The position numbers and the translations under genes are program-made. Below the pieces are notes generated by a model, which saw only the letters and a program-made list of their open reading frames with translations, did no database searches and was not told the origin of the DNA. 64,000 nucleotides of DNA from the NCBI GenBank assembly GCA_016839805.1, contig JAEOTO010000032.1, forward strand, positions 160,001 through 224,000, in the 5' to 3' direction. Numbering within the stretch: position 1 is the first letter of the stretch; every line of letters begins with the position of its first letter. The stretch is from Candidatus Hermodarchaeota archaeon (GTDB lineage Archaea > Asgardarchaeota > Hermodarchaeia > Hermodarchaeales > Hermodarchaeaceae). This document shows positions 11,139-45,344 of this stretch, in pieces.

Positions 11139-12814
11139 TTAGTAACAACAACAGATGTGTTTTGAAGTGTCATCTTCCCGTTGTGTTTTGCCACCATAAT
11201 GTTGGTAAACCAATTTTTGTTATCAAGGCTAGGATAATCAGTTCGATAATGTGCACCCCTTGACTCTTTGCGAAGAAGCGCAGAACGAACAAACATCTCA
11301 GCTACGAGCAGCATATCTTGCAATTCTAGTGCATTTATCCACTCTGTATTGTAGCGCGTAGCTTTGTTTCGAACAGCAAGTTGGGAAGTGATCTGCTTTT
11401 GATGATCATTGATGAATTGAAGAGCTGCATTTAGGTCTTGTTCATTTCTGAATAATCCTGCTCTATCCCACATAACACGTTGAAGCTGTTTGGTTTCCAT
11501 TGACGGGCTTAATCCATCTTCTCTTTGCAACGGAGCCATTACACGTTCGTATTCTTCATTGATTGCCCTTCGATTAAGAGAGGGAGATTGAGCAGTAGCA
11601 GCATATTTTGCAGCTGAACCCCCAGCAATTTTTCCGAAAACTTGACCAGCGGCGAGAGCATTCCCTCCTAAACGATTCCCACCATGCACCCCACCCGCTA
11701 CTTCACCAGCGGCATAAAGCCCTGGTAAATTTGTAGCAGCCGATGCATCAATTTTAATCCCACCCATCACGTGGTGAGCTGTTGGTGTAACTTCCATTGG
11801 TTCATTCCGAATATCAATACCAATATCAAGAAAATCTTCTAGCATAGTAGGAAGTCTTTCTTCAATGATTTTTGTAGGTAAGAAAGAAACATCTAGATAT
11901 ACAGCTTCGTTTTCTGTTCCACGTCCTTCGCGAATTTCTGTCGCAATTGACCTTGCAACTTCATCACGTCCTGCTAGCTCCATGGATCGAGGATTGTATC
12001 GTATCATAAATCGTTCGCCAACTTTGTTGAGAAGAATTCCGCCTTCACCTCGCACACCTTCAGTGACTAGGCGCCCCCGTGCAGCAGGGGGAATAGCTGC
12101 ACCCGTTGGATGAAACTGAAACTGTTCCATATCGATTAATTCGACACCAGCCTTGTATGCCAATGCGTATCCACTACCCACATCGGCTTGAGCATTTGTC
12201 GTTACATCATAAATCCGTCCTGCACCACCTGCAGCCATAATCACAGAGGGAGCACGGAACACTTTGAAATTCCCAGTTCTAATATCAACAACTGAGATAC
12301 CCACCACACGCGTTTCTTTGGTTAGGAGTGAAGTGGCAAATACTTCATCGATAATATTAATTTCCCGTCTACGGAGTTCTTCAGTTAATGTTGCCAAAAC
12401 CTCATGCCCCGTCCTGTCTCCAGCATAGCACGTTCGACGATAGGTTTGGTGACCGAAAGGACGTTGCATTATTAGTCCATCGGGAGTACGGGAAAATATC
12501 GCACCAAAATTTTCTAGATCATATACTCTCTTAGGAGCATCCTCTACTAGGATTTCAACTAAATTCTGATTATTCAGGAAGGCTCCAGCGCTACACGTAT
12601 CCCTCCCATGTATTTCACATAAATCATCTGGATCTAGATTTGCTAGCGCGGCGTTAATTCCTCCTTCGGCCATAACAGTATGGGCTTTCCCCAAAATATC
12701 CTTAGTAATTACTGTAATATCCAGATCTGCCTCAGAAGAAGCAATAGCCGCACGACACCCAGCACCTCCTGCTCCAACAACCAAAACGTCTGTATCAATA
12801 ATTTCGAAAGTCAC
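11117..12814 (-). CDS. tfrA: Thiol:fumarate reductase / fumarate reductase flavoprotein subunit A
   Basis: GAGGAG, AHTVMAEGG, QFHPT, EGVRGEGG, HGGNRLGGN, ESRGAH. Confidence 0.9.
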   Translation of the reverse strand: MTFEIIDTDVLVVGAGGAGCRAAIASSEADLDITVITKDILGKAHTVMAEGGINAALANLDPDDLCEIHGRDTCSAGAFLNNQNLVEILVEDAPKRVYDLENFGAIFSRTPDGLIMQRPFGHQTYRRTCYAGDRTGHEVLATLTEELRRREINIIDEVFATSLLTKETRVVGISVVDIRTGNFKVFRAPSVIMAAGGAGRIYDVTTNAQADVGSGYALAYKAGVELIDMEQFQFHPTGAAIPPAARGRLVTEGVRGEGGILLNKVGERFMIRYNPRSMELAGRDEVARSIATEIREGRGTENEAVYLDVSFLPTKIIEERLPTMLEDFLDIGIDIRNEPMEVTPTAHHVMGGIKIDASAATNLPGLYAAGEVAGGVHGGNRLGGNALAAGQVFGKIAGGSAAKYAATAQSPSLNRRAINEEYERVMAPLQREDGLSPSMETKQLQRVMWDRAGLFRNEQDLNAALQFINDHQKQITSQLAVRNKATRYNTEWINALELQDMLLVAEMFVRSALLRKESRGAHYRTDYPSLDNKNWFTNIMVAKHNGKMTLQNTSVVVTKWPPPWT

Positions 12815-13275
12815 TTGGATTCACCCATCGCCTTGACAATTTTACTGAGTTTAATTGGTGAACTTATGCTCTTTTCTTGGATAGCCAAACCTGACTCCAA
12901 AGGTTGAATAATTTCTTGGATTACCCAATCCGTAGCTTTTCTTTGGGCAGTTTCATAATCTTTGTCTTCGGTATTCCGGTCAATGCGCATGAAAAAGTTA
13001 TATGGTTCATTTTCCGAACTTTCTTTGGAGATAATCCAGAACGATTTTCCACCTTCGGGAACATTAATTGAACCTGTTATTTCATACCACTCTTCAATTT
13101 TGATTTTACCTTGTTTTTCGCGGTCGATTCGAACTTTGGTCATTTGTACATTTCGAAGATCAGATATGTTCTGTAAGCTTTGGAAAAGGACTTCACTAGA
13201 TTTCTTAAGGTTATAATCAGCGATTGTAATTTTGACATAGAGATCTGTTCTAAATATTGGCATTGAAGTAAACAC
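12811..13275 (-). CDS. Hypothetical protein
   Basis: 154-aa ORF overlapping the tfrA start by 4 nt; no recognised motif. Confidence 0.6.
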   Translation of the reverse strand: MFTSMPIFRTDLYVKITIADYNLKKSSEVLFQSLQNISDLRNVQMTKVRIDREKQGKIKIEEWYEITGSINVPEGGKSFWIISKESSENEPYNFFMRIDRNTEDKDYETAQRKATDWVIQEIIQPLESGLAIQEKSISSPIKLSKIVKAMGESK

Positions 13276-29789: not shown

Positions 29790-31064
29790 TTAGCCACCTA
29801 CCTTCCTTTTTTCAATTTGTAACTCTAATTCATTCTCTAGAACTGCTGCAGGGATATCCGGAAGTCCAATCAGAGTGGTTTTTCCACGTTGCCCAATCCC
29901 AGAAATCTTTGAAGTTAAAATTCCCAACCCGACAAGTTCCTGAATATATGCCCATACTTGAGTATGAGATCGAGGAGTTTGGTTATACTCTTCACTAACA
30001 AGACCATAACGAGCTTCCAACGCACCAGTTGTCACGTAAGCGTCTTCGGATGGTTTTAATAACCTACACACAGCAAGCAGCAGGAGTTTCTGATGGAACG
30101 ATAAGTCCATGAGGACCTCTCGTCGTATTTCAGGCGTGATAAAGGCCTTCGCACTTCGTACATATTCAGGAAGTATACGAAGAACCCCCTTTTCATCAGC
30201 AACTTTCCCTGCATTATACAGGAGTTCAAGGGCGTATCGAGCATCTCCTGATGCACTCGCGATATCGGCAATCAGATCAATTGTACTTGGAGGAACTGCT
30301 CCATCCAGAACCGCGGCTTTTATGCGAAAATTAAGGATGTCTTGAAGCTGAAGAGGATTGTAACGATTAAACTGTATCATATTCTTCTGCAATGTGCTCC
30401 ACGTACTTGGATCAAGTATGTAACCAAATAGCGGATTACGGCTTATCCCGATTAGTGATATTCGCTGTTGCGCATTCAGCTGATCATCAACCGTACGTGA
30501 TAATAGATAGAGAAGCTCTTCACCACGCCGTTTAAGAAATACACCAAGCTCGTCTAGCGTGATAAGTAGATACAAGTTATGCGTCTCAATGAACTCTAGG
30601 ACAATCGAGAGGAGTTCTTGTGTGGAAAGTCCTCGGAGCGGAACACCCGTTTGGAGTGCCGCGAGAATTTTGTTTAAGATCATATATTCTGTCCGTTCAC
30701 GCCGCGCATTAACGTGAACATAGACCAGATTGAATCCATGGCTCTTTGCGATCTCGGTCAACAGCTTTCCAAAGAGCTTAGTAACTGAAGTCTTTCCCGA
30801 ACCTGTATCACCGACAATCAGAACTTTCTGTGAGAAACGACCCGGCGCTTCGATTACACCACGAAATAGCTGGGTTAACTTACGTAAATGCTCTTCACGG
30901 TGAGGAAGATTGGGAGGAACATAGTCGATAGAGAGCTTTGCTTCATCGATGAACACAGATGGGCGTTGTAATTCATGCCGAATAATTTCCGTTCCAGATC
31001 CCCCCTGCCTTCTCGATCGCAAGTAAAGGTGTCTTTCGATTCCTCCAGCACACGGATTCAGCAC
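29790..31064 (-). CDS. cdc6: Cdc6/Orc1 paralog
   Basis: DYVPPNLPHREE, GDTGSGKT, LDEL, GDARYAL, C-terminal wHTH RGKTT; exact start uncertain. Confidence 0.93.
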   Translation of the reverse strand: MLNPCAGGIERHLYLRSRRQGGSGTEIIRHELQRPSVFIDEAKLSIDYVPPNLPHREEHLRKLTQLFRGVIEAPGRFSQKVLIVGDTGSGKTSVTKLFGKLLTEIAKSHGFNLVYVHVNARRERTEYMILNKILAALQTGVPLRGLSTQELLSIVLEFIETHNLYLLITLDELGVFLKRRGEELLYLLSRTVDDQLNAQQRISLIGISRNPLFGYILDPSTWSTLQKNMIQFNRYNPLQLQDILNFRIKAAVLDGAVPPSTIDLIADIASASGDARYALELLYNAGKVADEKGVLRILPEYVRSAKAFITPEIRREVLMDLSFHQKLLLLAVCRLLKPSEDAYVTTGALEARYGLVSEEYNQTPRSHTQVWAYIQELVGLGILTSKISGIGQRGKTTLIGLPDIPAAVLENELELQIEKRKVGG

Positions 31065-31570
31065 TCTTTCGCAACCAGTATTCCCAGTGGAGTCGTGCTG
31101 ACCACATTGAATTAGTTATTTCATTGTGTGCTCTCCATTCGATTTGGCACTCTCTCACAGAACAAAGAGATTCAGATGAGTCATGAAAGGACCCCCAAGG
31201 GTGTGCCACCACCCCGCTAACGTGTCCTCCGCAGAACCCACCTATGTTTCCAACCCCTACTACATCATGATGTGCTTCTAATCCACATTCACTAAACTTG
31301 AACAGCCTCCAGAACAGGTATCAGACGAAGCTAATGCAAAGGTGTTGGTTCGTCGCATGATTTTTCCCTTCATTCGCCGCACTTTGTTATTCAGAGATTA
31401 GCAGTTTTCCCGACTGCTATACAAGCCTATTCATTACCCGAATGAATTCGAGGACCTTTTGGTATTCGCTGTATTCAGAAAATAGAGCGGGTGTAATAAA
31501 AGAGCAGACAGAGTTGGAGATAAGTGAAAAGAAATCAAAATGCAAGTTCCTTTGATTAGGACATCACCAT

Positions 31571-33248: not shown

Positions 33249-33941
33249 TTATCTAAACCCTGTTGACTGTAATTGTAGTGTGAAGATTTCAGGTTCTCCC
33301 GCTTCTTCATCTTTAATCAACTTAAATTCTCTATGACCCTTCGATTTTGCTCTTGTAATTTGAAGTGAATAGGTACTCCAATAGGAACTGATAGAATAAG
33401 CCACCGGTTGAAATTCATTCTCCCCACCAATATCACCCCGAACCTGATTGACCACAATAACTGAAAACGATCGTGATCGCGCTAAATTTGTGATCATACC
33501 GAATTGTTGATTCAACCTACGGTTAAGAACCAGATTATCAGACGCTTGTCGATACTCTTTACGATATAATGAGACAATTGTATCAAAAACAAGTAGCTGA
33601 ACATCAGGTGTAAGCAAGGATTCTAATCTAGACACCAAAAGTGCTTGTTCAGTAAAACTAGTTGGGGACACAACGGTAATCAGGGGCGCAATATTTTCAA
33701 ACTCTTCTGGAACCAATTGTTTCAATCTTATAATGGGAAATTTACCTTCAGGATAGACGTAAAAAACACGAAAATTTTTGCGAGCCGCATTAATCGAAAA
33801 TTGGAGCGCAAGTGTTGTTTTGCCCACACCCCCAGGACCATAGACGTGTAATATTTCAGTGCTTCTTAACCCCCCTCCTAATAACTCATCTAATACGGTG
33901 GCCCCAGAGAATATCAGTTGATTTGAAGGCATTGCACACAC
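33249..33941 (-). CDS. radB: DNA repair protein RadB
   Basis: LDELLGGGL, YGPGGVGKTT, VVNQVR; short RecA core without the RadA N-terminal domain. Confidence 0.8.
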   Translation of the reverse strand: MCAMPSNQLIFSGATVLDELLGGGLRSTEILHVYGPGGVGKTTLALQFSINAARKNFRVFYVYPEGKFPIIRLKQLVPEEFENIAPLITVVSPTSFTEQALLVSRLESLLTPDVQLLVFDTIVSLYRKEYRQASDNLVLNRRLNQQFGMITNLARSRSFSVIVVNQVRGDIGGENEFQPVAYSISSYWSTYSLQITRAKSKGHREFKLIKDEEAGEPEIFTLQLQSTGFR

Positions 33942-33947
33942 CTAAAG

Positions 33948-33983
33948 TTCAATGAAATCAATGAAATTATTATTATTAATGAT
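33948..33983. repeat. Phased 9-bp WTCAWTGAW array (site A)
   Basis: TTCAATGAA ATCAATGAA ATTATTATT ATTAATGAT. Confidence 0.7.
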
Positions 33984-33997
33984 ACAATAGGAGAGGG

Positions 33998-35905
33998 TTA
34001 TTGGTTATAAAATGATTTCAATAATTTAAAGAGATGACCATCCTCGTCTTTTGAACGCTTTAAATTTTGGAGAATCCAACTAGGTAATAAACTATGACAA
34101 TAAGGCGTTGAATATCTATCATCTAAAAAGACAATAGCACCGAAATCTTCCAGCCTTCGAACCGAACGACCAGCAGCCTGCGAAGCAGCCCGCATAGCAG
34201 GCAACTGGTACCCATATAACCGTCCCTTCTTGGGAAATTGACGTTCGAAATAATCAACCCGAGTAATCTCACGTGGGCTAGGTCTGGCGTAAGGTACTCC
34301 AACAACGACAACCGTCTCCATCTCCCATCCCGGATAATCCTCACCCTCACTGTTTCGACCCCCAAGCACACCCAATAGTACAGCTCCATCACTAGCCTTT
34401 CTTTTAAATTCCTGAACTAACCGATCATTCTCACTGGATGAAAGACCAGGTTGTTCTACAAAGAGATCGCGATTAACGCCCGAATCCAATCCAGCAATAA
34501 GCAAGGATTGTAGAACTGCGTATGAGGGCACAAAAATCCCAACGTTATGAGGTGTTGCATGACATACTTCAATAAGCCTTTGAGTTATTTTCTCATACAT
34601 TGATGGAGTCCTATACTTCATTGCAGTTGTTACTCCCAAGCTAATTACAGGAAAGATTTGAACGTCATTAAAGGGTGAAGGCAGAGTAAGCATCCGTGTC
34701 TTTTCAGGTAACCCGACTAAGTCGATATGAGCACCAATTGGTTGTAATGTTCCAGATAAATGAACAGAGGCATGACATGAATTTAATATCGAAGCCGTTA
34801 CCGATCTAGGATCCAATGCAATTAACTCAAATCGATTTGCTGAACGAGTAGAGCTATTCTTTATCAAAAAAAATGCTGCATCTGATCTGCTTGAGAAATA
34901 ACACCACCTAACGAAAAACTTACCCAAGGAATGAATATAGCTAATAGGGGGCCTACCTTCAACTAGAAATTTATTCACTAGCTTTTCTCCGGTTTTCAAC
35001 AGCTTCGATGAAAAGGATTCTATATTCGCAATATTCATTGAACGTTGAATTTGTAAATTAAATTTCTCAGGATCTAGTTTAATTTCCCCTTTACCATTTT
35101 CTTCATCAAACAATTTTTCTAGGACTACACCAAAATTGCTTACGGTGGATAAGCGATAGCGTTTTGCTTCATTTACTGCCTGGCGAATAGAATTAATCGA
35201 TAGCTTTGCTGAAGCGATTTCTACTGCAATACGAGGTAAATTATGAGCTTCGTCGATGAGAAGTATTGTGTTTGAGAAAGGTCGTGCAAACGCCTCAAAA
35301 AATGAATTATTTATCTGTGGGTCGAAAACCTGATAATAACTCGTAGCAACAATTGTTACAAATGGTAATAATCGTTTAGACAGTTCATATGGACAAATTT
35401 GTTCATTATGGCATTTTTTACGTAGTTCCAACCCGGTTAACGGAGAAGTACAAAAACTGTTGAAGAAATGACGATTGCGTTTAATCTTTTTCGAGAGGTT
35501 ATTATACAGAGCACACCTTCCTGAGCGCTTTAATTGGCTGCATATGAACATAGCAAGCTGAGCATTAAATGCATATTTCTGTACCAGGGGATTCAAACAC
35601 GATGATGTTCTACCACGTAACACTACACCACTAAATCCATTCGACTTCGATAAGGGTAGTAACTCTTGCATTACCCGATCCAGTTGTTTGTGAGTCCTAG
35701 CAACATATATTATTCCAAAATTCCTTTTTTCTAACAGTGGTAGAACGCCTGATAACGCCGCTATTGTTTTTCCAAATCCGTTTGCCGCTTCAACACATAG
35801 ATGGTTCCCAGCTGCAACATCTTCTCGAATTGCTTCTATGAGGGTAAGTTGACCGGGTCGAGGAGACGTATAAGGGAAATATGGATTAGTATGATAGGAA
35901 GACAT
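33998..35905 (-). CDS. xpd: XPD/Rad3/DinG family Fe-S helicase
   Basis: RPGQ, EAANGFGKT, four Cys ligands, IDEAHNL, SGTL, SEGEDY, QAAGRSVR. Confidence 0.9.
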   Translation of the reverse strand: MSSYHTNPYFPYTSPRPGQLTLIEAIREDVAAGNHLCVEAANGFGKTIAALSGVLPLLEKRNFGIIYVARTHKQLDRVMQELLPLSKSNGFSGVVLRGRTSSCLNPLVQKYAFNAQLAMFICSQLKRSGRCALYNNLSKKIKRNRHFFNSFCTSPLTGLELRKKCHNEQICPYELSKRLLPFVTIVATSYYQVFDPQINNSFFEAFARPFSNTILLIDEAHNLPRIAVEIASAKLSINSIRQAVNEAKRYRLSTVSNFGVVLEKLFDEENGKGEIKLDPEKFNLQIQRSMNIANIESFSSKLLKTGEKLVNKFLVEGRPPISYIHSLGKFFVRWCYFSSRSDAAFFLIKNSSTRSANRFELIALDPRSVTASILNSCHASVHLSGTLQPIGAHIDLVGLPEKTRMLTLPSPFNDVQIFPVISLGVTTAMKYRTPSMYEKITQRLIEVCHATPHNVGIFVPSYAVLQSLLIAGLDSGVNRDLFVEQPGLSSSENDRLVQEFKRKASDGAVLLGVLGGRNSEGEDYPGWEMETVVVVGVPYARPSPREITRVDYFERQFPKKGRLYGYQLPAMRAASQAAGRSVRRLEDFGAIVFLDDRYSTPYCHSLLPSWILQNLKRSKDEDGHLFKLLKSFYNQ

Positions 35906-35976
35906 TGGTTAATTCTCATCATTTGATATACCCAAAGGATAAAAACCTCATACAACACCCAATGAACGCAAAGCAC

Positions 35977-36012
35977 TTCATTGAGTTCAATATATTTAAT
36001 GAAATTAATGAG
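35977..36012. repeat. Phased 9-bp array (site B)
   Basis: TTCATTGAG TTCAATATA TTTAATGAA ATTAATGAG. Confidence 0.7.
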
Positions 36013-36065
36013 ATATAGATTTGGACCCTGCAAATTATTTACCGACGGATTTTTTAGTATAATGA

Positions 36066-36617
36066 ATGAACCGTATACAAAACTGTATCCGTGGAGATAA
36101 TGAGTTGACTGAAAAAAACGAAACAACAGAAACGCGTTCTTGGACCCGCAGAATGCTAGGAGACCCGATTACTAAGCTTCTTGCAGACCACAGTAACCTT
36201 ACTCCAGTACAACTTGAAACCCTTGTTATCGACTATCTAATGGACGGGTTTAGTGGAAAACAGCTTGATTATGAAACAAAAGCCACTTTACGAGAAGTCA
36301 AGCCTGCTTATCAAAGACAGAAAGGCGTTAGTAGAGGTGCATTCAATCGGTCTCTTGCCCAAGCTCGAAAGAACGTGACAAAATCGATCTTTACATTAGT
36401 ACTTCTAGGCTATTTAGGACTCTTCGACACTCCATCACTCAAACGTTATCAAGACCTTTCTGATAATATTCGAAGCTTTGCGCGGGAATATGACAAAGTT
36501 GCGACAACGAAAGAAAAACCAACTGACACTCATATTAATACTCTCAAACAGGCACAAGAAAGAATTCTTAAACTCATTGAGACCCTAGCTCAACCTGTCG
36601 CCCTAAAGCCTGAATAA
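36066..36617 (+). CDS. Conserved archaeal hypothetical protein, probable HTH
   Basis: SNLTPVQLE...GVSRGAFNRSLAQARKN HTH-like segment. Confidence 0.65.
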   Translation: MNRIQNCIRGDNELTEKNETTETRSWTRRMLGDPITKLLADHSNLTPVQLETLVIDYLMDGFSGKQLDYETKATLREVKPAYQRQKGVSRGAFNRSLAQARKNVTKSIFTLVLLGYLGLFDTPSLKRYQDLSDNIRSFAREYDKVATTKEKPTDTHINTLKQAQERILKLIETLAQPVALKPE

Positions 36618-36622
36618 GGAAA

Positions 36623-36640
36623 CTCAATGAATTCAATGAT
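36623..36640. repeat. 9-bp array (site C), between convergent genes
   Basis: CTCAATGAA TTCAATGAT. Confidence 0.65.
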
Positions 36641-36665
36641 TTTTATAAAATGAATCTAGTGATCT

Positions 36666-37265
36666 TTACTTAGTCATAGTGTAAACAAGGTTTTCCCCAC
36701 TGGGAGTACATTCAATACGTTCGGGAGTTTTCATTAAATACCCCATTTTTGTTAGATAATCTAACGCATCGTTGATAAAACCGGCGTCAAACCCATGATT
36801 AAAAAGAGAGTCTTCTTGAGAAACTCCACCTAATCGTTCTAATAGAACTAACACAGATAGGTAGCCAAATTGATTGATTAGTTGACTTGCAGCTATAGCT
36901 TCGTTGTCCTGAGATCCTGGCCAGAAAGAGATCGGTATCCAACCAATGAAATGATAGAATAACACTTCACCAAAAGCCCTTAACAATTTAAGGATAGGTT
37001 CTTCCGTTCCAGGTTGCACAGCTAATACACTTTTACCTAATTTCGCATGCGGGACCTGATCTAACACCCCCTCATAATAATAAGTACGAGTAACAACTTG
37101 ACCGGATTTCAACTGCTGTTTGATTTGCTGTCTATAACCATATAATTCCCGAAAAAACCGAGTCTTCCGAGACTGATTAGCACCCTTAGGCTGTTTGAAA
37201 TCAAAGGAGATTACACACAATCTTCTCTTAGGTATAGTTTGCATAGCTAATCCCTCAAGTATCAC
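36666..37265 (-). CDS. Cas2/VapD-like ferredoxin-fold domain plus C-terminal wHTH (hypothetical)
   Basis: ISFDF...FFRELYGY...GVL...LGKSV pattern; C-terminal LDYLTKMGYL...TPSGE. Confidence 0.5.
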   Translation of the reverse strand: MILEGLAMQTIPKRRLCVISFDFKQPKGANQSRKTRFFRELYGYRQQIKQQLKSGQVVTRTYYYEGVLDQVPHAKLGKSVLAVQPGTEEPILKLLRAFGEVLFYHFIGWIPISFWPGSQDNEAIAASQLINQFGYLSVLVLLERLGGVSQEDSLFNHGFDAGFINDALDYLTKMGYLMKTPERIECTPSGENLVYTMTK

Positions 37266-37318
37266 AAGCTAATATCAACACTTAACAGTACTTACCCTAA
37301 AAAATCAAGTCATGGAAA

Positions 37319-37364
37319 ATTAGTGAACTCATTATATTTCAATAATTTCATTAATTTTAATGAA
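37319..37364. repeat. Phased 9-bp array (site D)
   Basis: ATTAGTGAA CTCATTATA T TTCAATAAT TTCATTAAT TTTAATGAA. Confidence 0.65.
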
Positions 37365-37406
37365 ATTACCATTTTTAAGGAAACATATACGTTAGACGAA
37401 CACAAT

Positions 37407-37787
37407 TCAAGATTTGTCCTTAAGCTTTTCATAGATTTCAGGAAATGCTGATCTTATTTTCTCCTCAACCGCCTTTGCGATGAATCGTGATTTCCCACCA
37501 AACCCACTATAAGGACCTTCACCTTTTTTCGTAGCTTCAAGAGCAATAAAATCCAAAGCCACCTTTATCCAACCTGGTACACTTGCACTAATTGTTTCCC
37601 GGCGATTATATTCTTCTTTGAGCCCAAGTCTCTTTAGACCCGATTCTCCGACACGAGATGGGAGATCATCTAGTTTAATAGGACCAGTATCCAACTCCGC
37701 AAAACGTCTTTTTGATTTGGGTTCTTTGCCCTTGTCTTTTTCTTTCTCTTTTTTCATTCGTTCTCTAACTAAATCCGTAGCTGACAT
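37407..37787 (-). CDS. Ribbon-helix-helix protein with a charged, disordered N-terminal tail
   Basis: ETISASVPGWIKVALD...KSRFIAKAVEEKI gives strand-helix-helix; K/E-rich N-terminus. Confidence 0.7.
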   Translation of the reverse strand: MSATDLVRERMKKEKEKDKGKEPKSKRRFAELDTGPIKLDDLPSRVGESGLKRLGLKEEYNRRETISASVPGWIKVALDFIALEATKKGEGPYSGFGGKSRFIAKAVEEKIRSAFPEIYEKLKDKS

Positions 37788-37800
37788 TCTTTATCTTACC

Positions 37801-39120
37801 TCACACAAATGTGGACCCTTTAGTCCAAAGCTCAGTGGCCTGTATTCGACCTGCCTCAGGACTATAGATTAGGCCTTGTTTTTCGAATAAATCGAAATCT
37901 TCCAACACGCTCTCCCATGAACGATTTTTACTTTCCAGCCATGTTTCAATTTCATCAAGTGACCGCGCTGTTGATAGAAACGCTAACAAATCGGTTTGAA
38001 ACTTATTGAATTCAGCTCGTGCTCGTTTAACTTCCTTTTGTACAAAATGTTGTACGTATTTAGCATCTATTTCATAGGCGGATAATACCTGATCCAAGCT
38101 ATAACCATCTTTAACCAGTACTTCCGCACCACGAATAGCGTCTTGAAGAGTCCTTAGTAATAATTCAAGCATTATACCGGGATTCCCACCAGAGTAATCG
38201 AAAATTCCTTCTAGTGCTCCAGCTGTAAATGGATGGAGAATTTCCTTTACAATTTCGGAATTCAAATTGATCCTCTTAGCCGTGTCATGTGGGAATCGAT
38301 CAAAGGAATCTTTCAGATAAGCAAGTCTCCATGCCATGACCTTGATTGCACTTGTTCTATTCATCCTACGCATATCATAAATTTCAACAAACCTTCTTCG
38401 GATAGCAGATTTTGATCCATGGCCAAGACTTTCACCAACCGAAGATAAGATTTCAAGCGTTTTCACCGCACTTTCACCTACACGAGTAATGACAGCTAAA
38501 GCAAGAACTAGATATCGCCGCCCATCTCGTGTCTTATCGTTGACCATTCGCAACAGGATATCAACAATTCTTACACGATTATCAGGCCTTTGCCTTTCTA
38601 ACTGCCTAAATTCATCAATTAGTAGGACATATGCAGTTCCGTTTTCTTCTGCGTCTGTTCTTAAAGCTAACAATAAGCGGGACAACCGTTTCGCTACTGA
38701 ACCACTACGAACTACTCTTACTCCCACGCGGTCAATCAAAAAATCACGAACCGTTTGCTCACCAATATTTGCATGAACAAGATCGTCAATAAGAGCATCA
38801 GCAGAACTTATTCCCTCGAGGCGAACAGCCCTAATGTTTGGTAAGCGATTCAATGATTGCTGAATCATTTCAAGAAAAGTAGTTTTCCCGGCACCCAAGG
38901 GACCTGATACGACTACACTCGCTGTTTGGTTACGAAGATAGTTAATCGCGCGTTTAATTGCCAAAGCCTCTTCTTCTGGTACAACATACAGGTCAGAAGA
39001 ATCAATACCGAACAACTCGATCCTTTCGTTCTTAAATCCCCATAAAGAAAGCATTTTTTGATCGAATTTTTGTGTCTGTTCTACTAGCCGATCCAGTTCA
39101 CTCAGACCTAACACACCCAA
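37801..39120 (-). CDS. AAA+ ATPase with C-terminal wHTH (Cdc6/ExeA-like architecture)
   Basis: SGPLGAGKTT, LLIDEF, AIRRRF, SGGNPG, C-terminal FEKQGLI. Confidence 0.8.
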   Translation of the reverse strand: MGVLGLSELDRLVEQTQKFDQKMLSLWGFKNERIELFGIDSSDLYVVPEEEALAIKRAINYLRNQTASVVVSGPLGAGKTTFLEMIQQSLNRLPNIRAVRLEGISSADALIDDLVHANIGEQTVRDFLIDRVGVRVVRSGSVAKRLSRLLLALRTDAEENGTAYVLLIDEFRQLERQRPDNRVRIVDILLRMVNDKTRDGRRYLVLALAVITRVGESAVKTLEILSSVGESLGHGSKSAIRRRFVEIYDMRRMNRTSAIKVMAWRLAYLKDSFDRFPHDTAKRINLNSEIVKEILHPFTAGALEGIFDYSGGNPGIMLELLLRTLQDAIRGAEVLVKDGYSLDQVLSAYEIDAKYVQHFVQKEVKRARAEFNKFQTDLLAFLSTARSLDEIETWLESKNRSWESVLEDFDLFEKQGLIYSPEAGRIQATELWTKGSTFV

Positions 39121-39192
39121 TTACATAGAAGAAAAGATGTGAGTACATACTATAAATTTATTGATAGCATTGGAAATCAATAAGTAATTAAA

Positions 39193-39210
39193 TTCAATGA
39201 ATTCATTGAA
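39193..39210. repeat. Perfect 18-bp palindrome of two 9-mers (site E), upstream of the ATPase-RHH operon
   Basis: TTCAATGAATTCATTGAA, with weaker units at 39157-39184. Confidence 0.75.
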
Positions 39211-39233
39211 AATTATAATAAACCACTTATTCG

Positions 39234-39824
39234 CTACCTTGTAAAGGCGATGATATCAATTTTTGTGATTATTCCGGCAGGTCTGTCTTCATCCATTACT
39301 AACAATGCCTCAACGCCTGAGGCTATTTTCGAAAAAGCAGTTTCGGCACTTTCATTGATATCAATTTTGGGAAAAGGGTCATCCATTATTTCATGAACTG
39401 ACAATGCAAAAACCTTCTGTGACTCCATTGTTGTTAGTCTGCGAAGAATGGTACCTTCGCTAATACTTCCAACAGTTATATTGCCTTTCATTACGGGAAG
39501 CTGGGAAATCCCTAATCGCCTCATAATAATAACCGCGCGCCGAACTTTTTCGTTTGGGCCTATGAAGACCAAAGGATGAAGTTTTGAAGTTTGCCCCTTC
39601 CACCTTAAAAGATCCCGAATGCTAGAGTGGGATTTTTTTTGGCTCTCTATTTCGACAAGAATGCGTTTCAATGTAGATACGCTCGGATTCACCTGCCCCT
39701 TTTCAATACGTGCTACTAAGGATTGGCTTATTCCAACACGTGCAGCAAGCTCCGCTTGTGTTAGACCCACCTTCTTTCGAAGTTCTTGTAATTCTTTAGG
39801 TGAGGGAACTCGATATTCAGCCAT
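39234..39824 (-). CDS. XRE-HTH plus CBS-pair regulator
   Basis: LRKKVGLTQAELAARVGISQSLVARIEKG, ISQLPV, GIITKID; start moved to MAEYRVP. Confidence 0.9.
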   Translation of the reverse strand: MAEYRVPSPKELQELRKKVGLTQAELAARVGISQSLVARIEKGQVNPSVSTLKRILVEIESQKKSHSSIRDLLRWKGQTSKLHPLVFIGPNEKVRRAVIIMRRLGISQLPVMKGNITVGSISEGTILRRLTTMESQKVFALSVHEIMDDPFPKIDINESAETAFSKIASGVEALLVMDEDRPAGIITKIDIIAFTR

Positions 39825-39915
39825 CTTAAAGCACGCACCACTAACATATACTACTGATAACAACTCCAAAAGAATTAATACCCTGCTTTTGCGGGTGAAT
39901 GGGGAGATGACACCG

Positions 39916-42240
39916 ATGACTAAAACCCAGCAAGCAGAAATTCGAGTTGTTGGTGTCGTACAAGGTATTGGCTTCCGACCATTCATCTACTCGCAGGCTA
40001 TAAAACATCAGCTGCTAGGATATGTTTTGAATACAGGTAATTCCGCTGTTAAAATTATTGTAGAAGGAGAAAAAAACAATATCATTGATTTCATTGATTC
40101 CATTGAACGAGATAAGCCTTTCCTCGCAGTAATTGATAGTATACAAACCATTTGGCGATCCTCAACTAATGGGTTTACCGATTTTCAAATTCACATCTCA
40201 AAGAATGAAGAAAAAGCCGGCGGATCAATAATCCCAGCAGATATTGCAGTCTGCGAAGATTGCATCAAAGATATGTCTAACCCTCACTCAAGACACTATC
40301 AATACCCCATGACTTGTTGTGCGATTTGTGGTCCACGTTATACCACCATCACAGACACGCCTTACGACCGCGAACGAACCACAATGGTTGACTTCCCGCT
40401 TTGTGAAGACTGTTCTGCCGAATTCAATAATCCCCTTAACCGACGATACAACGCACAAACAATTTGTTGCCCAAAATGCGGCCCAGAATTTCGACTAATC
40501 AATTCAGAGGGTTTGGTTGTTGACGCTACTGATGTATTTCAGGAAACCGTCAAGCTGTTAAACAAGGGTAAAATCGTCGCAATAAAGGGATTAGGCGGCA
40601 TTCACCTTGCAGTAAGAGCCGAACTTGAAGAAGAAGTACAACGTTTACGCAAGTTAAGAAACAAACCCCATAAACCATTAGCGATTATGTCACCTAACCT
40701 TGATGCAATTAAGCAATATGCTAGAGTCAACGACACGGCAAAGCAATTATTATTATCGTGGCGACGGCCTATTGTAGTTTTAGAAAAAATTAAAAAATTC
40801 CAGTTAGCCCCTTCCTTAGCTCCTGGACTTGACACGATTGGGGTAATGCTTCCCTACTCAGGAATCTACCTACGTTTATTCGATGGCCTCCAAGATGTCG
40901 CACTAGTGATGACTAGTGCTAATCCAGTAGGTTTACCAACCATCATTCACGCCAATACCTTCCAAGAACGCTTCATGAAAATGGCTGATTTCTTTCTCAC
41001 TCATAACCGTACAATTTACCAACGATGTGATGACTCAGTAGTTATCCCCACAAATGATCAAACCCTTATCATCCGCCGATCAAGAGGTTATACCCCTGAA
41101 CCCATTAATACAGCGAATATGGGACCTCCCATTCTAGCATTAGGAGCATTAGAAAAAAACACTGGCGCCATTTACCACAAAAAACGCATTTTCCTCACAC
41201 AGCACATAGGTGATGTTGACACCATAGAAACGTTACAATATCTCCAAGAAAGTCTATCACAGCTCCAAAAGCTACTACGTATCAGCAGCTTTGATGCAAT
41301 TGCCTGTGATCTTCACCCTGATTTCCTTACCACCCAATATGCCGAAAAGTTAGCCAAAGAACAAAAAATACCCCTAGTCCAGGTTCAACACCATCACTCC
41401 CACCTTGCTGCATTACTAGCTGACCATCAATTACCAATGGATGAAGAAATAATTGCCATCTGCTGTGATGGCGCAGGATACGGACCCGATAATACTATCT
41501 GGGGTGGAGAAATACTAGCGGGGAATGCACGTGAATACCAACGCGTAGGATATCTCGAACCGCACCCAATGCCCGGAGGAGATCTTGCGGCACAATACCC
41601 GTTCAGAATGCTCATGGGAATTCTATCTAAGAAATATTCGCAAACCAAATTAGAGCGCGTGTTTCAAAAAGAAGCAAAAAAAGCCTTACCTCAAGGCCAA
41701 ATGGAGTTACAAAACGTCATCACTCAAACATACCAAAAAATCAACACCCCCTTAACATCGAGCACCGGCAGAATTCTTGATGCTTTAGCAGCTCTCCTTC
41801 AAGTTTCTTACAAAAGGACATACGAAGGCGAACCAGCAATCCGTTTCGAAGCCTATGCAAACTCAGGTAAAAATAACCCCAAAGTTCATTTGGAAATCCC
41901 TGTAACCCGACAGGAATCCTCGTACCTTCTTGATACAGGAACCCTGGTCGACCAAGTTTTTCAACAACGATCAGACATACAGGGACCTGACCTAGCGTTG
42001 GCCGCACATCTAACTCTTGGTCAAGCCCTAGCAAATATCGCTGTACAATCAGCTAATGCGCGCGGATTAAATCGAATCGGTTTTTCAGGTGGCGTAGCAT
42101 ACAATAAGATCTTAACTAAGACCATTCGAGATGCAGTCGAATTAGAAGGGCTGACTTTTTTACTCCATCGAAATGTACCCCCAGGTGACGCAGGAACATC
42201 GGTAGGACAATCCCTTGTGGCACGCTCTCAAATTATTTGA
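39916..42240 (+). CDS. hypF: Hydrogenase maturation carbamoyltransferase HypF
   Basis: GVVQGIGFRPF, two Zn fingers, KGLGG, CDLHP, QHHHSH, GDAGTSVGQ. Confidence 0.95.
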   Translation: MTKTQQAEIRVVGVVQGIGFRPFIYSQAIKHQLLGYVLNTGNSAVKIIVEGEKNNIIDFIDSIERDKPFLAVIDSIQTIWRSSTNGFTDFQIHISKNEEKAGGSIIPADIAVCEDCIKDMSNPHSRHYQYPMTCCAICGPRYTTITDTPYDRERTTMVDFPLCEDCSAEFNNPLNRRYNAQTICCPKCGPEFRLINSEGLVVDATDVFQETVKLLNKGKIVAIKGLGGIHLAVRAELEEEVQRLRKLRNKPHKPLAIMSPNLDAIKQYARVNDTAKQLLLSWRRPIVVLEKIKKFQLAPSLAPGLDTIGVMLPYSGIYLRLFDGLQDVALVMTSANPVGLPTIIHANTFQERFMKMADFFLTHNRTIYQRCDDSVVIPTNDQTLIIRRSRGYTPEPINTANMGPPILALGALEKNTGAIYHKKRIFLTQHIGDVDTIETLQYLQESLSQLQKLLRISSFDAIACDLHPDFLTTQYAEKLAKEQKIPLVQVQHHHSHLAALLADHQLPMDEEIIAICCDGAGYGPDNTIWGGEILAGNAREYQRVGYLEPHPMPGGDLAAQYPFRMLMGILSKKYSQTKLERVFQKEAKKALPQGQMELQNVITQTYQKINTPLTSSTGRILDALAALLQVSYKRTYEGEPAIRFEAYANSGKNNPKVHLEIPVTRQESSYLLDTGTLVDQVFQQRSDIQGPDLALAAHLTLGQALANIAVQSANARGLNRIGFSGGVAYNKILTKTIRDAVELEGLTFLLHRNVPPGDAGTSVGQSLVARSQII

Positions 42241-42283
42241 ACCCGTTGTTATTGAATCAACGTATTTGTTGAACAAAGACTAA

Positions 42284-42323
42284 TTCATTTATTTCAATGA
42301 ATTCATTAAGTTCCAGTGGAAAT
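42284..42323. repeat. 9-bp array (site F) abutting a mini-ORB
   Basis: TTCATTTAT TTCAATGAA TTCATTAAG followed directly by TTCCAGTGGAAAT. Confidence 0.7.
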
Positions 42324-42378
42324 CATCCACAACTAATATAAATACCGGTTTATTATCTAGACGCAGAGTTGTGGTTAA

Positions 42379-42672
42379 ATGGCAGCTACTCGAACAACAC
42401 AGCAAACCCGACATGGTGCTCAAAAAGGTAAAAACCGTCAAAGCACATCAACTGTACAGGCCGCAGCACCAACAAACCCCAAGGTAAATATCATCGATTT
42501 ACTTCGAGATAAAGGTGCTTTAACTAGGGGTGATATCACAACAGAAACGGGGATCCCACGTACAACTGTATATGATACCTTGATGAATCTCCTCATTTCT
42601 GGGGTTATTGAAAAGTATGTTGAAAAAAATGGTCGTCGTGGTCGGCCATCTGTTTATTATCAACTTGTATAA
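42379..42672 (+). CDS. TrmB-like winged-helix protein
   Basis: LTRGDITTETGIPRTTVYDTL...GRRGRPSVYY. Confidence 0.8.
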   Translation: MAATRTTQQTRHGAQKGKNRQSTSTVQAAAPTNPKVNIIDLLRDKGALTRGDITTETGIPRTTVYDTLMNLLISGVIEKYVEKNGRRGRPSVYYQLV

Positions 42673-42687
42673 TCCCTAGCAACTAAG

Positions 42688-43861
42688 CCCCTTTGTTTCC
42701 ACTGGAACCTCATTTATTAGGTTTTTCTGTGATAATCTAGACACATTAGAAAATGCGCAAAACCATTCTATGAAACATTAAGAAAAGGCTTCTAGAAACG
42801 GGAAACTATTAATACATCCTAAACTAAAAACAAACGGGTATTATTCTTCGAATAACATATTTCCATGCACAAACTCTTTATTTTCTTCGAGTTCCAGTGG
42901 AAACGAAGGGGAGTAATATTATTATTTCATCATCTTGTTCTTAGTAGATCGTAGAACGTCTTCATTGATGTAATATATGAAAGTTTATAACTATAGTTCA
43001 TAACTTTTTATAATAAAACAATACACACAATCAAAAATCCCTAAGAATTGATATCATAGAGTCTGAAGATTTTCGGTGGTTATACTTTTGTAGCCAGAAT
43101 TGTGGCAATTTCTTCTTCTAATACCTCGATATTAACCCGGTATTCACGTTGTGCAGGTGATCCACGCCGGGTAAGGTTGCCTTCGTCATGCAGTCTTCGG
43201 AGGTATTGAGATGCAGTAGCTAATCGGAGGGGTGTATGGAAGGTCCGATTATAGAGTTCTTGGATGTCACTAGAGGTAAACCAGCCGTGCCGGCAGTGAC
43301 GGAGTACAATATAGCGGACTTTACGGAACAGGCTCCAAGATTCGATATCCGCTAGAGTGGTTAATTCCTTTGCGGGTGTTGTTGGTGTTTCTTCAGTGCC
43401 AGATTGATTGAGTGCTTTGGATATTGATTGTGTAATGGATTCAGGCAAACCATCATCGAAGGTAATGGTCAGGTTGCAGGTTTTTCCCTCGATTGTGAGG
43501 CCTTCGATGGTAATCTTTTGCTTCTTTTTCTTCATTGTTCCGTCACCTGGTATCTTCTACCCTGCTCTCCGCGTCCCATTATATTCTGGCTTGTTCACAA
43601 TAATAAAAGTGTGACGGTGTGAAGTACTAAGTTAGGGTTTATACACGAAATGTGAGTTGATGTCTTTCTTGTAATTATGGGGGTTTCAAGCTTTATTCAG
43701 AATTCTTTGGTTTTTGGTGGTAAATACGGGTTCTCTGGGTTTATTTTTGGATTTCAGGTACTTTCTCCATTTCTTCTCATTGTTCACAAGTTATCGTTTG
43801 TTTATTAGTTGTTTGTATTAATCTAAGGTCTTAGAGGGTAGTTCCAGTGGAAACAAAGGGG
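42688..43861. other. Replication origin (oriC) with ORB boxes
   Basis: GTTCCAGTGGAAAC(A/G)AAGGGG at 42688-42708 (-), 42891-42911 (+) and 43841-43861 (+); AT-rich spacers; upstream of cdc6. Confidence 0.9.
43080..43535 (-). CDS. Winged-helix protein embedded between ORBs
   Basis: WFTSSDIQELY...LATASQYLRRLHDEGNLTRRG...EY. Confidence 0.75.
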   Translation of the reverse strand: MKKKKQKITIEGLTIEGKTCNLTITFDDGLPESITQSISKALNQSGTEETPTTPAKELTTLADIESWSLFRKVRYIVLRHCRHGWFTSSDIQELYNRTFHTPLRLATASQYLRRLHDEGNLTRRGSPAQREYRVNIEVLEEEIATILATKV

Positions 43862-44108: not shown

Positions 44109-45344
44109 ATGGATGACCCACGCCCACTTGATCGCATCTTCGAACGTTTTAGTACCGGGCCCTCCCTCATTCGTGATAGGAAAGTTCTCTGGCATTCATA
44201 TGTTCCGGATGAATTACCTCATCGTGAAGAACAAATCACCCAGATTGGAAGCATTTTGGCAACTGGGTTGAAAGGAAGTCGCCCGTCTAATGTTTTTGTG
44301 TATGGGAAACCTGGAACGGGGAAAACGGCAGTAACTCGGTATGTCCTTCGAGAGTTGACAACTAAATTTGGAGAGCTTCAGTTACCTTTCAAATCGGTGT
44401 ATTTGAATTGTCGTAACGTTGATACTGATTATCGGGTTCTGGCCCGAATTTGTGCAGAGTTGGGTCAAAAGGTTCCTTTTACTGGGTTGCCAACTGACGA
44501 AGTTCATTCGCGTCTTATTGAGTTGTTGGAAAGCCAGGATTTACTCACTATTATTGTTCTTGATGAAGTTGACCGTTTGGTTTTGAAGAGTGGAGATGAC
44601 ACCCTGTATAAATTAACGCGAATTAATTATGAGCTATCAAATTCACGGGTTAGTTTAATTGGGATCTCTAACGATCTTCGATTTCCTGAATACTTGGACC
44701 CGCGGGTGTTGAGTAGTTTAAGTGAGGAAAAGGTCATTTTTCATCCGTATACGGCATTACAGCTGCAGGATATCTTACGACGCCGTAGTTCTCATGGCCT
44801 AAAAGATGGAATTCTTGAAGAACCTGGTGTAATTAATTTGTGTGCGGCGCTGGCTGCACGAGAAGAGGGTGATGCAAGACGCGCTTTAGATCTATTTCGA
44901 GTTTCGGTAGAGGTCGCTGAACGCGAAGGAAGTAAAGATGTTTCAGTTGACCACGTTGAAAAGGCACGTTTAAGCATTGAGCGAGATACCGTGCTCGAAG
45001 TGCTCCGTACACTTCCTTTACAACAGAAATTGGTTCTTTATGCTGTTTACATACTGGGTCGTTACAAACATCCACATCCTGTAACGGGGGAAGTTCAAGA
45101 TGTGTATGGCGATTTATGCAATGAATTAGGGATTGACTCTCTAACGCAACGTCGTGTTAGTGATCTTATCAATGATTTAGATGCCATTGGGCTAGTAAAT
45201 GCTAAGGTAGTCAGTAAGGGGAGGTATGGCCGGACAAAGATAATTCGGTTGAGCGTTTCAAACAAAATGGTAGCTGAAGTTTTAGAACGTGATAGCCGAA
45301 TTAAAACGCTCTCAAGTTATATACCGAAAAATCTTGGAAAATAA
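44109..45344 (+). CDS. cdc6: Origin-associated Cdc6/Orc1 initiator
   Basis: YVPDELPHREEQI, GKPGTGKT, LDEVD, GDARRALD, SKGRYGRT. Confidence 0.97.
   Translation: MDDPRPLDRIFERFSTGPSLIRDRKVLWHSYVPDELPHREEQITQIGSILATGLKGSRPSNVFVYGKPGTGKTAVTRYVLRELTTKFGELQLPFKSVYLNCRNVDTDYRVLARICAELGQKVPFTGLPTDEVHSRLIELLESQDLLTIIVLDEVDRLVLKSGDDTLYKLTRINYELSNSRVSLIGISNDLRFPEYLDPRVLSSLSEEKVIFHPYTALQLQDILRRRSSHGLKDGILEEPGVINLCAALAAREEGDARRALDLFRVSVEVAEREGSKDVSVDHVEKARLSIERDTVLEVLRTLPLQQKLVLYAVYILGRYKHPHPVTGEVQDVYGDLCNELGIDSLTQRRVSDLINDLDAIGLVNAKVVSKGRYGRTKIIRLSVSNKMVAEVLERDSRIKTLSSYIPKNLGK

Follow-up and report, generated by a model that had tools for sequence, protein, structure and literature searches.

Phased 9-bp repeat arrays beside the replication origin of an Asgard archaeon and a candidate partition-like module built on an AAA+ ATPase

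Phased repeat arrays on one flank of the origin

We analysed a 64,000-nucleotide window (C22:160001-224000) of an Asgard metagenome-assembled genome (MAG; 2.31 Mb in 50 contigs, 43.8% GC, 87% complete). A canonical archaeal origin of replication (oriC) lies at 42.3-43.9 kb of this window, with four origin recognition boxes (ORBs) and an adjacent orc1/cdc6 gene. Between radB and the first of these boxes (ORB1), over 8.4 kb, there are seven arrays of a 9-base-pair (bp) palindrome, TTCAWTGAA, whose dyad-symmetric units abut one another in tandem and in phase, in runs of 2-5. Within the field lies an operon that encodes an AAA+ ATPase and a protein of 126 amino acids (aa). Leftward from the origin the gene order is hypF, a helix-turn-helix (HTH) regulator with CBS domains (HTH-CBS), the ATPase/126-aa operon, p199, p183, XPD, radB, and a second orc1/cdc6 gene. 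The arrays and the genes among them are as follows.

33948-33983: array A, 4 phased units (2 strong), in the XPD/radB gap immediately upstream of the radB start
35977-36020: array B, 4-5 phased units, between the divergent XPD and p183 promoters
36623-36649: array C, 2-3 units, between the convergent genes p183 and p199, where a promoter is not expected
37319-37372: array D, degenerate, 5-6 units, flanked by the 126-aa gene's stop codon and the p199 TATA-like box; found in 13/13 loci
39185-39219: array E, 2 perfect units with degenerate flanks, ~30 bp upstream of the TATA-like box of the ATPase operon
40081-40107: array G, 3 in-phase units in hypF codons (9 bp = 3 codons); found in 13/13 loci
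42284-42309: array F, 3 units, continuing straight into ORB1
37801-39120, minus strand: AAA+ ATPase of 439 aa, leading the operon; both Walker motifs (A and B) are classical, and the C-terminal tail is conserved
37407-37787, minus strand: 126-aa protein, second gene of the operon, with an N-terminal peptide, a K/E-rich linker and a C-terminal strand-helix-helix region (ribbon-helix-helix (RHH)-like, unconfirmed)
36666-37265, minus strand: p199, lineage-restricted, probable start at 37244
36066-36617, plus strand: p183, a UPF0251-like HTH protein, found widely among archaea and, in several Asgard families, linked to the origin
39234-39824, minus strand: HTH(XRE)-CBS regulator, origin-linked across Asgard families
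33249-33941, minus strand: radB-like recombinase, at the left border of the array field
33998-35905, minus strand: XPD helicase, at the left border of the array field
39908-42240, plus strand: hypF (carbamoyltransferase), which hosts array G

Short tandem repeats thus stand beside the operon and overlap promoters: arrays D and E bracket it, and arrays A, B, C, F and G extend the field. Arrays B, D, E and F, together with a remote eighth array described below, either precede conserved TATA-like boxes by 20-70 bp or lie between divergent promoters. Array A sits in a 56-bp gap inside a probable XPD-radB transcript.

The two-unit pattern, with at most one mismatch, matches the window 13 times, whereas dinucleotide shuffles predict 0.11 matches. 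In the genome as a whole, all of the exact doubles (4/4) and six of the nine doubles with at most one mismatch fall in the 8.4 kb of the field, as do seven of the eight best three-unit arrays detected with a position weight matrix (PWM) built from other species only. A reversed-pattern control gave no matches in 15 genomes, so AT content is not the explanation of the arrays; the shuffles, this control and the genome-wide scans rule out chance or AT-richness as their source. In 14 congeneric genomes, nearly all exact matches occur on the contig bearing the ATPase and the ORBs, and outside the genus the exact double was seen only as scattered single matches (24 of 385 genomes). Single 9-mer units outside the field number 76, of which 12 are in space free of open reading frames (ORFs; 16%, vs 11.5% of the genome). 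As single units are not enriched in non-ORF space, we rejected a genome-wide regulator that uses single 9-mers.

The original prediction for this locus, made from the DNA sequence, had listed six arrays, all of which stand, and had missed array G in hypF at 40081-40107. It had placed one array between convergent genes and the last one against an ORB, and these are array C (p183/p199) and array F (running into ORB1). The genome-wide motif scan that it proposed revealed the enrichment near oriC given above, and AT content, which it named as a trivial cause of the motif, does not account for it. Its expectation that the module would be linked to the origin in relatives also held: the gene order from radB to PolD is kept in 12 congeneric loci.

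The seven array positions are kept in 12 congeneric genomes, where the arrays appear as footprints in intergenic gaps amid diverging flanks. In each of the 13 loci, a PWM map (score of at least 18) recovered these seven positions alone within ~20 kb. Array A is conserved in 9/13 loci with XPD, and it persists in the radB/p183 gap of loci that have lost XPD. Two congeners lack XPD and keep the arrays, and one congener has a 978-bp insertion in the XPD/p183 gap (loci L016, L020 and L017 are concerned). The sister genus (g2) could not be used for comparison: the origin region is unassembled or absent in 4/4 MAGs, and G016 has synteny on either side of a contig break and weak arrays only.

Conservation is also apparent at the array that lies within a gene. 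Across the nine hypF codons of array G, third-position identity is 0.786, vs a gene mean of 0.441, which ranks first of 291 windows in the first 300 codons of hypF. Thus, the DNA at this position is selected beyond the protein code. Together, array G in hypF codons and array C in a convergent gap argue for binding that is independent of promoters.

The sole strong array elsewhere in the genome is the eighth, at C37:3530-3556 (G000, locus L044), which has three units and is away from the origin. It occupies the divergent gap between a gene for a GNAT acetyltransferase (Rv0428c_C-like) and an operon encoding an uncharacterised 290-aa protein (p290), a Ras-family GTPase and an Rce1-like protease, and it is conserved in 14/14 congeners. 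Since this is the only strong array outside the field and single units are not enriched, there are eight sites in all, seven of them at the origin. Given the divergent promoter gap in which the remote array lies, the array binder probably also regulates transcription. Overall, the arrays are a genome-private, origin-linked and evolutionarily conserved set of sites.

The ATPase and its small partner protein

The ATPase has a classical Walker A motif (GPLGAGKT) and is not of the ParA type: it lacks the deviant Walker A (KGGxxK[ST]), and its Pfam matches are AAA, AAA_22 and ATPase_2 only, with scores of 27.6 for AAA_22 (curated cut-off 27) and 33.0 for ATPase_2 (cut-off 33.2). Both true cdc6 genes match the Cdc6_lid and Cdc6_C families, whereas the 439-aa ATPase matches neither, and its sensor-2-like lid motif is without the arginine. 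The AlphaFold2 (AF2) model (predicted local distance difference test (pLDDT) 74) has an Orc1/Cdc6-like fold, arranged as AAA+ domain, lid and winged helix, with the predicted winged helix at the C-terminus. The top structure match of this model is 1w5s (VIA Z 16.8, 325 residues aligned, root-mean-square deviation 7.0), followed by 2qby (Z 16.2); the alignment to these archaeal Orc1/Cdc6 structures takes in the C-terminal winged helix, and they are tied with the archaeal ATPase_2 proteins 2qen and 2fna (Z ~16). TnsC, subunits of the origin recognition complex (ORC) and MuB come after these.

Across the genus the ATPase is 82-84% identical, vs 52-72% for its neighbours, making it the best-conserved gene of the field after cdc6. 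Its sequence relatives amount to three clusters among 1.84 billion representatives, and profile and protein searches of 400 Asgard genomes did not find it outside this genus. The sole distant relative is a metagenomic protein of 29% identity, for which the recovered context is a 1,049-bp contig. The last 12 residues of the ATPase are nearly invariant and are recognisable in this relative too, and such conservation suggests a functional tail. Start codons are TTG or GTG in most species. A tblastn search of PLSDB gave no plasmid match for the ATPase, and PADLOC and PHROG gave no meaningful match. On the basis of these searches, a defence, phage or plasmid origin of the module was rejected.

In every genome the 126-aa gene begins 13-16 bp after the ATPase gene. 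Its product opens with an invariant 15-residue peptide followed by a variable K/E-rich linker that is predicted to be disordered (pLDDT <50), and its C-terminal region conserves a strand-helix-helix pattern and a G-x-S-like turn. We found no RHH fold for this protein in Pfam (12 orthologues), in two PDB profile searches or with Foldseek, for which the model was of low confidence. The best PDB profile match was a CopG-family regulator at E 1.3, the ESM Atlas yielded sub-threshold RHH-type leads only (scores 0.85-0.87), and the AF2 monomer has a pLDDT of 59. The RHH fold is putative. Next after the gene for the 29%-identical ATPase comes one for a protein of 104 aa, which is organised in the same three parts as the 126-aa protein and whose sequence is more typically RHH-like; pairwise similarity between the 126-aa and 104-aa proteins is not significant. 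Thus, where the original prediction described an operon of a classical-Walker-A AAA+ ATPase with a winged helix and an RHH protein with a flexible tail, the operon is present, the ATPase has an Orc1/Cdc6-like predicted fold with the winged helix at its C-terminus, and the tail is seen as a conserved N-terminal peptide and a disordered charged linker, whereas the RHH fold was confirmed by no tool.

Of the neighbouring proteins, p199 was found in this lineage only; its N-terminal domain resembles a beta-alpha-beta-beta-alpha-beta fold and its C-terminus a winged HTH (wHTH). The true start of HTH-CBS is at ~39824, because the longer ORF extension has stops or frame changes in relatives. The 5' overlap of HTH-CBS and hypF (39825-39986) is an artefact; hypF starts at ~39908 and the real divergent gap is 83 bp, without an array.

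The origin and the corresponding slot in other Asgard families

The origin next to which the array field ends comprises the following features; the last line gives the second orc1/cdc6 gene, beyond the other end of the field.

42309-43861: oriC, from ORB1 to ORB4, with two genes in between
42309-42322, plus strand: ORB1, an ORB repeat of oriC
42688-42708, minus strand: ORB2, an ORB repeat of oriC
42890-42911, plus strand: ORB3, an ORB repeat of oriC
43840-43861, plus strand: ORB4, an ORB repeat of oriC
42379-42672, plus strand: Lrs14-like wHTH gene, between ORB1 and ORB2
43080-43535, minus strand: 151-aa gene, between ORBs of oriC
44109-45344, plus strand: orc1/cdc6 initiator gene, adjoining oriC, with the PolD small subunit gene next
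29790-31064: second orc1/cdc6 paralogue, left of radB

ORB2 and ORB3 are an inverted pair separated by an AT-rich spacer of 182 bp, and the minimum of the cumulative GC skew, at ~43 kb, coincides with the ORB region. The locus thus has the marks of an archaeal oriC, namely ORBs that include an inverted pair around an AT-rich spacer, a neighbouring orc1/cdc6 gene and a skew switch. A conserved 8-bp inverted repeat at 42327-42374 lies on both sides of the TATA-like box and leader that belong to the gene for the Lrs14-like wHTH protein, and it may be an autoregulatory operator or a leader hairpin. No known RNA families were found in 29-47 kb of the window. The second orc1/cdc6 paralogue is preceded by a 500-bp non-coding stretch (31065-31570) that is comparatively GC-rich. 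We rejected a second origin there, as the stretch has neither an ORB nor a 9-mer array.

For comparison with other Asgard archaea we used four complete genomes from three other families (f2, f7 and f12). In all three families, p183 and HTH-CBS lie beside ORBs, cdc6 and the PolD small subunit gene, and the slot next to them holds the following genes.

G019 (f2), next to p183: an AAA_22/ATPase_2 ATPase of 306 aa and a 117-aa protein with an RHH-like C-terminus
G024 (f7): a 351-aa P-loop ATPase and a 153-aa protein, with a homologue of the p199 N-domain (E 4e-5)
G029 and G039 (f12): canonical ParA (AAA_31, E 5e-55) and ParB (ParB_N, HTH_ParB)

The ParA-ParB operons (L076 8152-9751 in G039; L074 6885-8478 in G029) are located directly between the ORB origin and p183/HTH-CBS, and the slot of the ATPase operon is equivalent to that of ParAB. 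ParB_N (PF02195) was found in none of the 15 genomes of this genus (72-91% complete), nor in any f2 or f7 genome, whereas f12 has it. Comparison of the ATPase with the slot ATPases of G019 and G024 gave hhalign probabilities of 56-62% (E ~1e-4), with common motifs ahead of the P-loop and in the lid. Pfam scans detected no winged-helix family in the two slot ATPases.

G024 has its own, different phased repeat, which directly flanks the ATPase and reaches the ORB. The repeat occurs in locus L075 at 10791-10825, 11882-11929 and 12660-12707, with units around CTGATATCAG, and a second palindrome family is seen at 12232-12251 and 12936-12974. Different repeats per lineage around a fast-diverging module are the pattern expected if the binder is encoded by the module and co-evolves with its sites.

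Possible functions and comparison with known systems

The explanation that we rank first, and hold tentatively, is that the cassette combines type-Ib-like partition with autoregulation and is built on an AAA+ nucleoside triphosphatase (NTPase). This ranking follows from the mixed positions of the arrays and from the equivalence of the slot with that of ParAB. The best account of the seven arrays themselves, for which we would likewise claim somewhat less than an even chance, is that they act in cis as the sites of an Asgard module that is conserved, evolves fast and is linked to the origin; its parts would be the Orc1/ExeA-fold AAA+ ATPase, the small tailed DNA-binding protein and p199. Dimers of the small protein would bind each 9-bp palindrome and polymerise cooperatively along the tandem units, similar to RHH proteins on met-boxes or omega on its heptads. 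Most arrays stand a short distance upstream of promoters of the module itself, so that such binding would autoregulate it together with the neighbouring genes. The seven occupied arrays would form a nucleoprotein domain on one flank of oriC, and the N-terminal peptide of the small protein would recruit or stimulate the ATPase. The ATPase could then use this domain as a handle for positioning or segregating the origin, as ParA-ParB-parS does from this slot in other Asgard families.

What chiefly speaks for the 126-aa protein as the candidate binder is that abutting short dyads suit small dimers that bind cooperatively, one to a unit, and suit an HTH dimer poorly. A dual nature of the sites as operators and centromeres, some of them within genes, would not be unusual, as the type Ib partition proteins omega and ParG, and SegB, have just this mixed character (PMC12284271). 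As related archaea have ParA-ParB in the equivalent slot, the module is probably an undescribed partition-like or origin-handling system. A bolder claim, which we consider possible and would not press, is that it represents a new class of DNA-segregation machine that replaces ParABS at the chromosome origin in several Asgard lineages and in which an AAA+ ATPase of Orc1/ExeA fold works with a tailed RHH-like protein that binds centromeres, the centromeres being tandem repeats private to each lineage.

Several points weigh against a partition cassette. We know of no AAA+ ATPase that drives partition, and to our knowledge all known partition NTPases are ParA-, actin- or tubulin-like. Several ParA/MinD-type ATPases are encoded elsewhere in the genome. 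The RHH fold is unconfirmed (AF2, Pfam and PDB results above, including the CopG match at E 1.3), and five other locally encoded proteins of DNA-binding type could bind the arrays. Homology to the G019 and G024 ATPases is only moderate, and the argument from the slot comes from four complete genomes in three families. Finally, a pure regulator would explain both the conserved eighth array away from the origin and the arrays close to TATA-like boxes. Of the partition or origin-control system originally proposed, the conserved, origin-linked sites and the slot equivalence with ParAB therefore stand, whereas the remote and TATA-proximal arrays point to a transcriptional role, which may be additional to, or instead of, a centromere role.

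A purely transcriptional function is the second of the explanations considered, and we regard it as rather unlikely taken alone. The arrays would be operators or upstream activating sites of one regulator encoded nearby, either one of four proteins (the 126-aa protein, p199, p183 and HTH-CBS) or the Orc-fold ATPase through its winged helix. They would control a few replication and repair genes near the origin (radB, XPD, the module, the Lrs14-like gene) and the remote GNAT/p290-Ras GTPase locus, and the ATPase would be a co-regulator like the Orc1-2 DNA-damage regulator of Sulfolobales. The promoter-proximal positions of arrays B, D, E and F and of the remote array, and the retention of the latter in 14/14 congeners, are in line with this. 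So is the top fold match 1w5s, which is of the Orc1-2 type, Orc1-2 being known to bind promoter motifs as a regulator (PMC12490963), and archaeal cell-cycle regulators of the RHH type exist (aCcr1, PMC9976878). However, three of the seven arrays are off promoter positions (in the convergent gap, in hypF codons and in the short intra-operonic XPD/radB gap), there are just eight arrays genome-wide with no enrichment of single units outside ORFs, and the presence of ParAB in the same slot of other families would be left unexplained.

Less probable still is that the arrays serve as accessory sites at which an initiator-like AAA+ protein is titrated or loaded, be it the Orc-fold ATPase or either Orc1/Cdc6 paralogue, and so tune the firing of the adjacent oriC, in the manner of the ORB-rich negative regulator of Haloarcula oriC2 or bacterial datA/DARS. 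The fold of the ATPase is nearest to Orc1/Cdc6, the field is flanked by two orc1/cdc6 genes and stops exactly where ORB1 begins, the 9-mer dyad, read directly, resembles a contracted ORB core, and a separate repeat-rich region that controls an archaeal origin has a precedent (PMC3936714). Yet the ATPase has neither Cdc6 signature nor the arginine in its lid motif, and the remote array is not near a known origin. Furthermore, as the ATPases of G019 and G024 are short and have no Pfam winged helix, direct recognition of the sites by the ATPase is unlikely to be general. It is very improbable that p199, the 126-aa protein, the ATPase and iteron-like repeats are the relic of a maintenance module from an integrated plasmid or virus, with no present chromosomal role. 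The three proteins are indeed orphan and lineage-restricted, but strict synteny and purifying selection across 14 species (the ATPase identity given above; arrays at all seven positions), analogous modules at the origins of other families and the lack of plasmid, PHROG and PADLOC matches all stand against such a relic.

Asgard lineages are the closest archaeal relatives of eukaryotes, and the partition-like cassette that we favour bears on how they handle and segregate their chromosomes, ParB being absent from our searches of this genus and patchy in the phylum sample. If it is real, an origin-linked cassette on an ORC-like AAA+ ATPase would be a new solution to segregation and could link initiator-type ATPases functionally to chromosome positioning in the lineage nearest to eukaryotes. 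Even if its role is regulatory only, the locus defines, for one Asgard origin, a compact group of sites and factors that can be tested. Reviews assume ParA/ParB for segregation in Asgard archaea (PMC7617429). We found no publication describing an origin module of an AAA+ ATPase and a small protein, or the 9-mer motif, in these archaea, and a search with the motif gave unrelated matches only.

The closest parallels are among the type Ib partition cassettes. In delta-omega-parS (pSM19035) and ParF-ParG-parH (TP228), repeat arrays at promoters act both as operators and as centromeres. In both, as at the Asgard locus, two genes form an operon that encodes an NTPase and a small protein with an N-terminal tail, flexible in the known systems and predicted to be so here, and promoter regions around the operon carry several arrays of short tandem repeats. 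Unlike these systems, the NTPase described here is a classical-P-loop AAA+ protein (Orc1/ExeA fold) rather than a ParA with a deviant Walker motif, the locus sits on the chromosome and is linked to the origin, the repeats are built of 9-bp palindromes, an RHH binder is unconfirmed, and there is a third, lineage-specific component (p199). The geometry of the arrays recalls the met-boxes of MetJ, where cooperative RHH dimers occupy tandem, abutting, dyad-symmetric units of 8 bp (9 bp here); MetJ, however, is a metabolic repressor without an NTPase partner or a link to an origin.

SegAB of Sulfolobales likewise pairs an NTPase with a small protein in an archaeal operon. SegB is a site-specific RHH binder (a fold unconfirmed for the Asgard protein) with palindromic sites near its operon and elsewhere, some of them inside genes (PMC12284271). 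SegA is of the ParA type whereas the ATPase here is AAA+, and the SegB site is a single 13-bp palindrome, with ~40-49 sites chromosome-wide that are mostly intragenic, in contrast to eight tandem arrays of a 9-bp motif of which seven lie within 8.4 kb at oriC. Orc1/Cdc6 paralogues with non-initiator roles, such as Orc1-2 (PMC12490963), share the three-domain fold, and the ORB-rich negative regulator of Haloarcula oriC2 (PMC3936714) shares clusters of repeats near an origin, which are regulatory there; unlike both, the present ATPase has no Cdc6 signatures and comes with a small tailed partner, and the repeats here are of a kind other than ORBs. Chromosomal ParABS differs from the module in its protein families, among them the ParB_N that was not found in 15 genomes of the genus, and in its 16-bp parS sites as opposed to tandem 9-mers. 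In Asgard family f12, however, it occupies the same slot between the ORBs and p183 with HTH-CBS, and in both systems the sites cluster by the origin.

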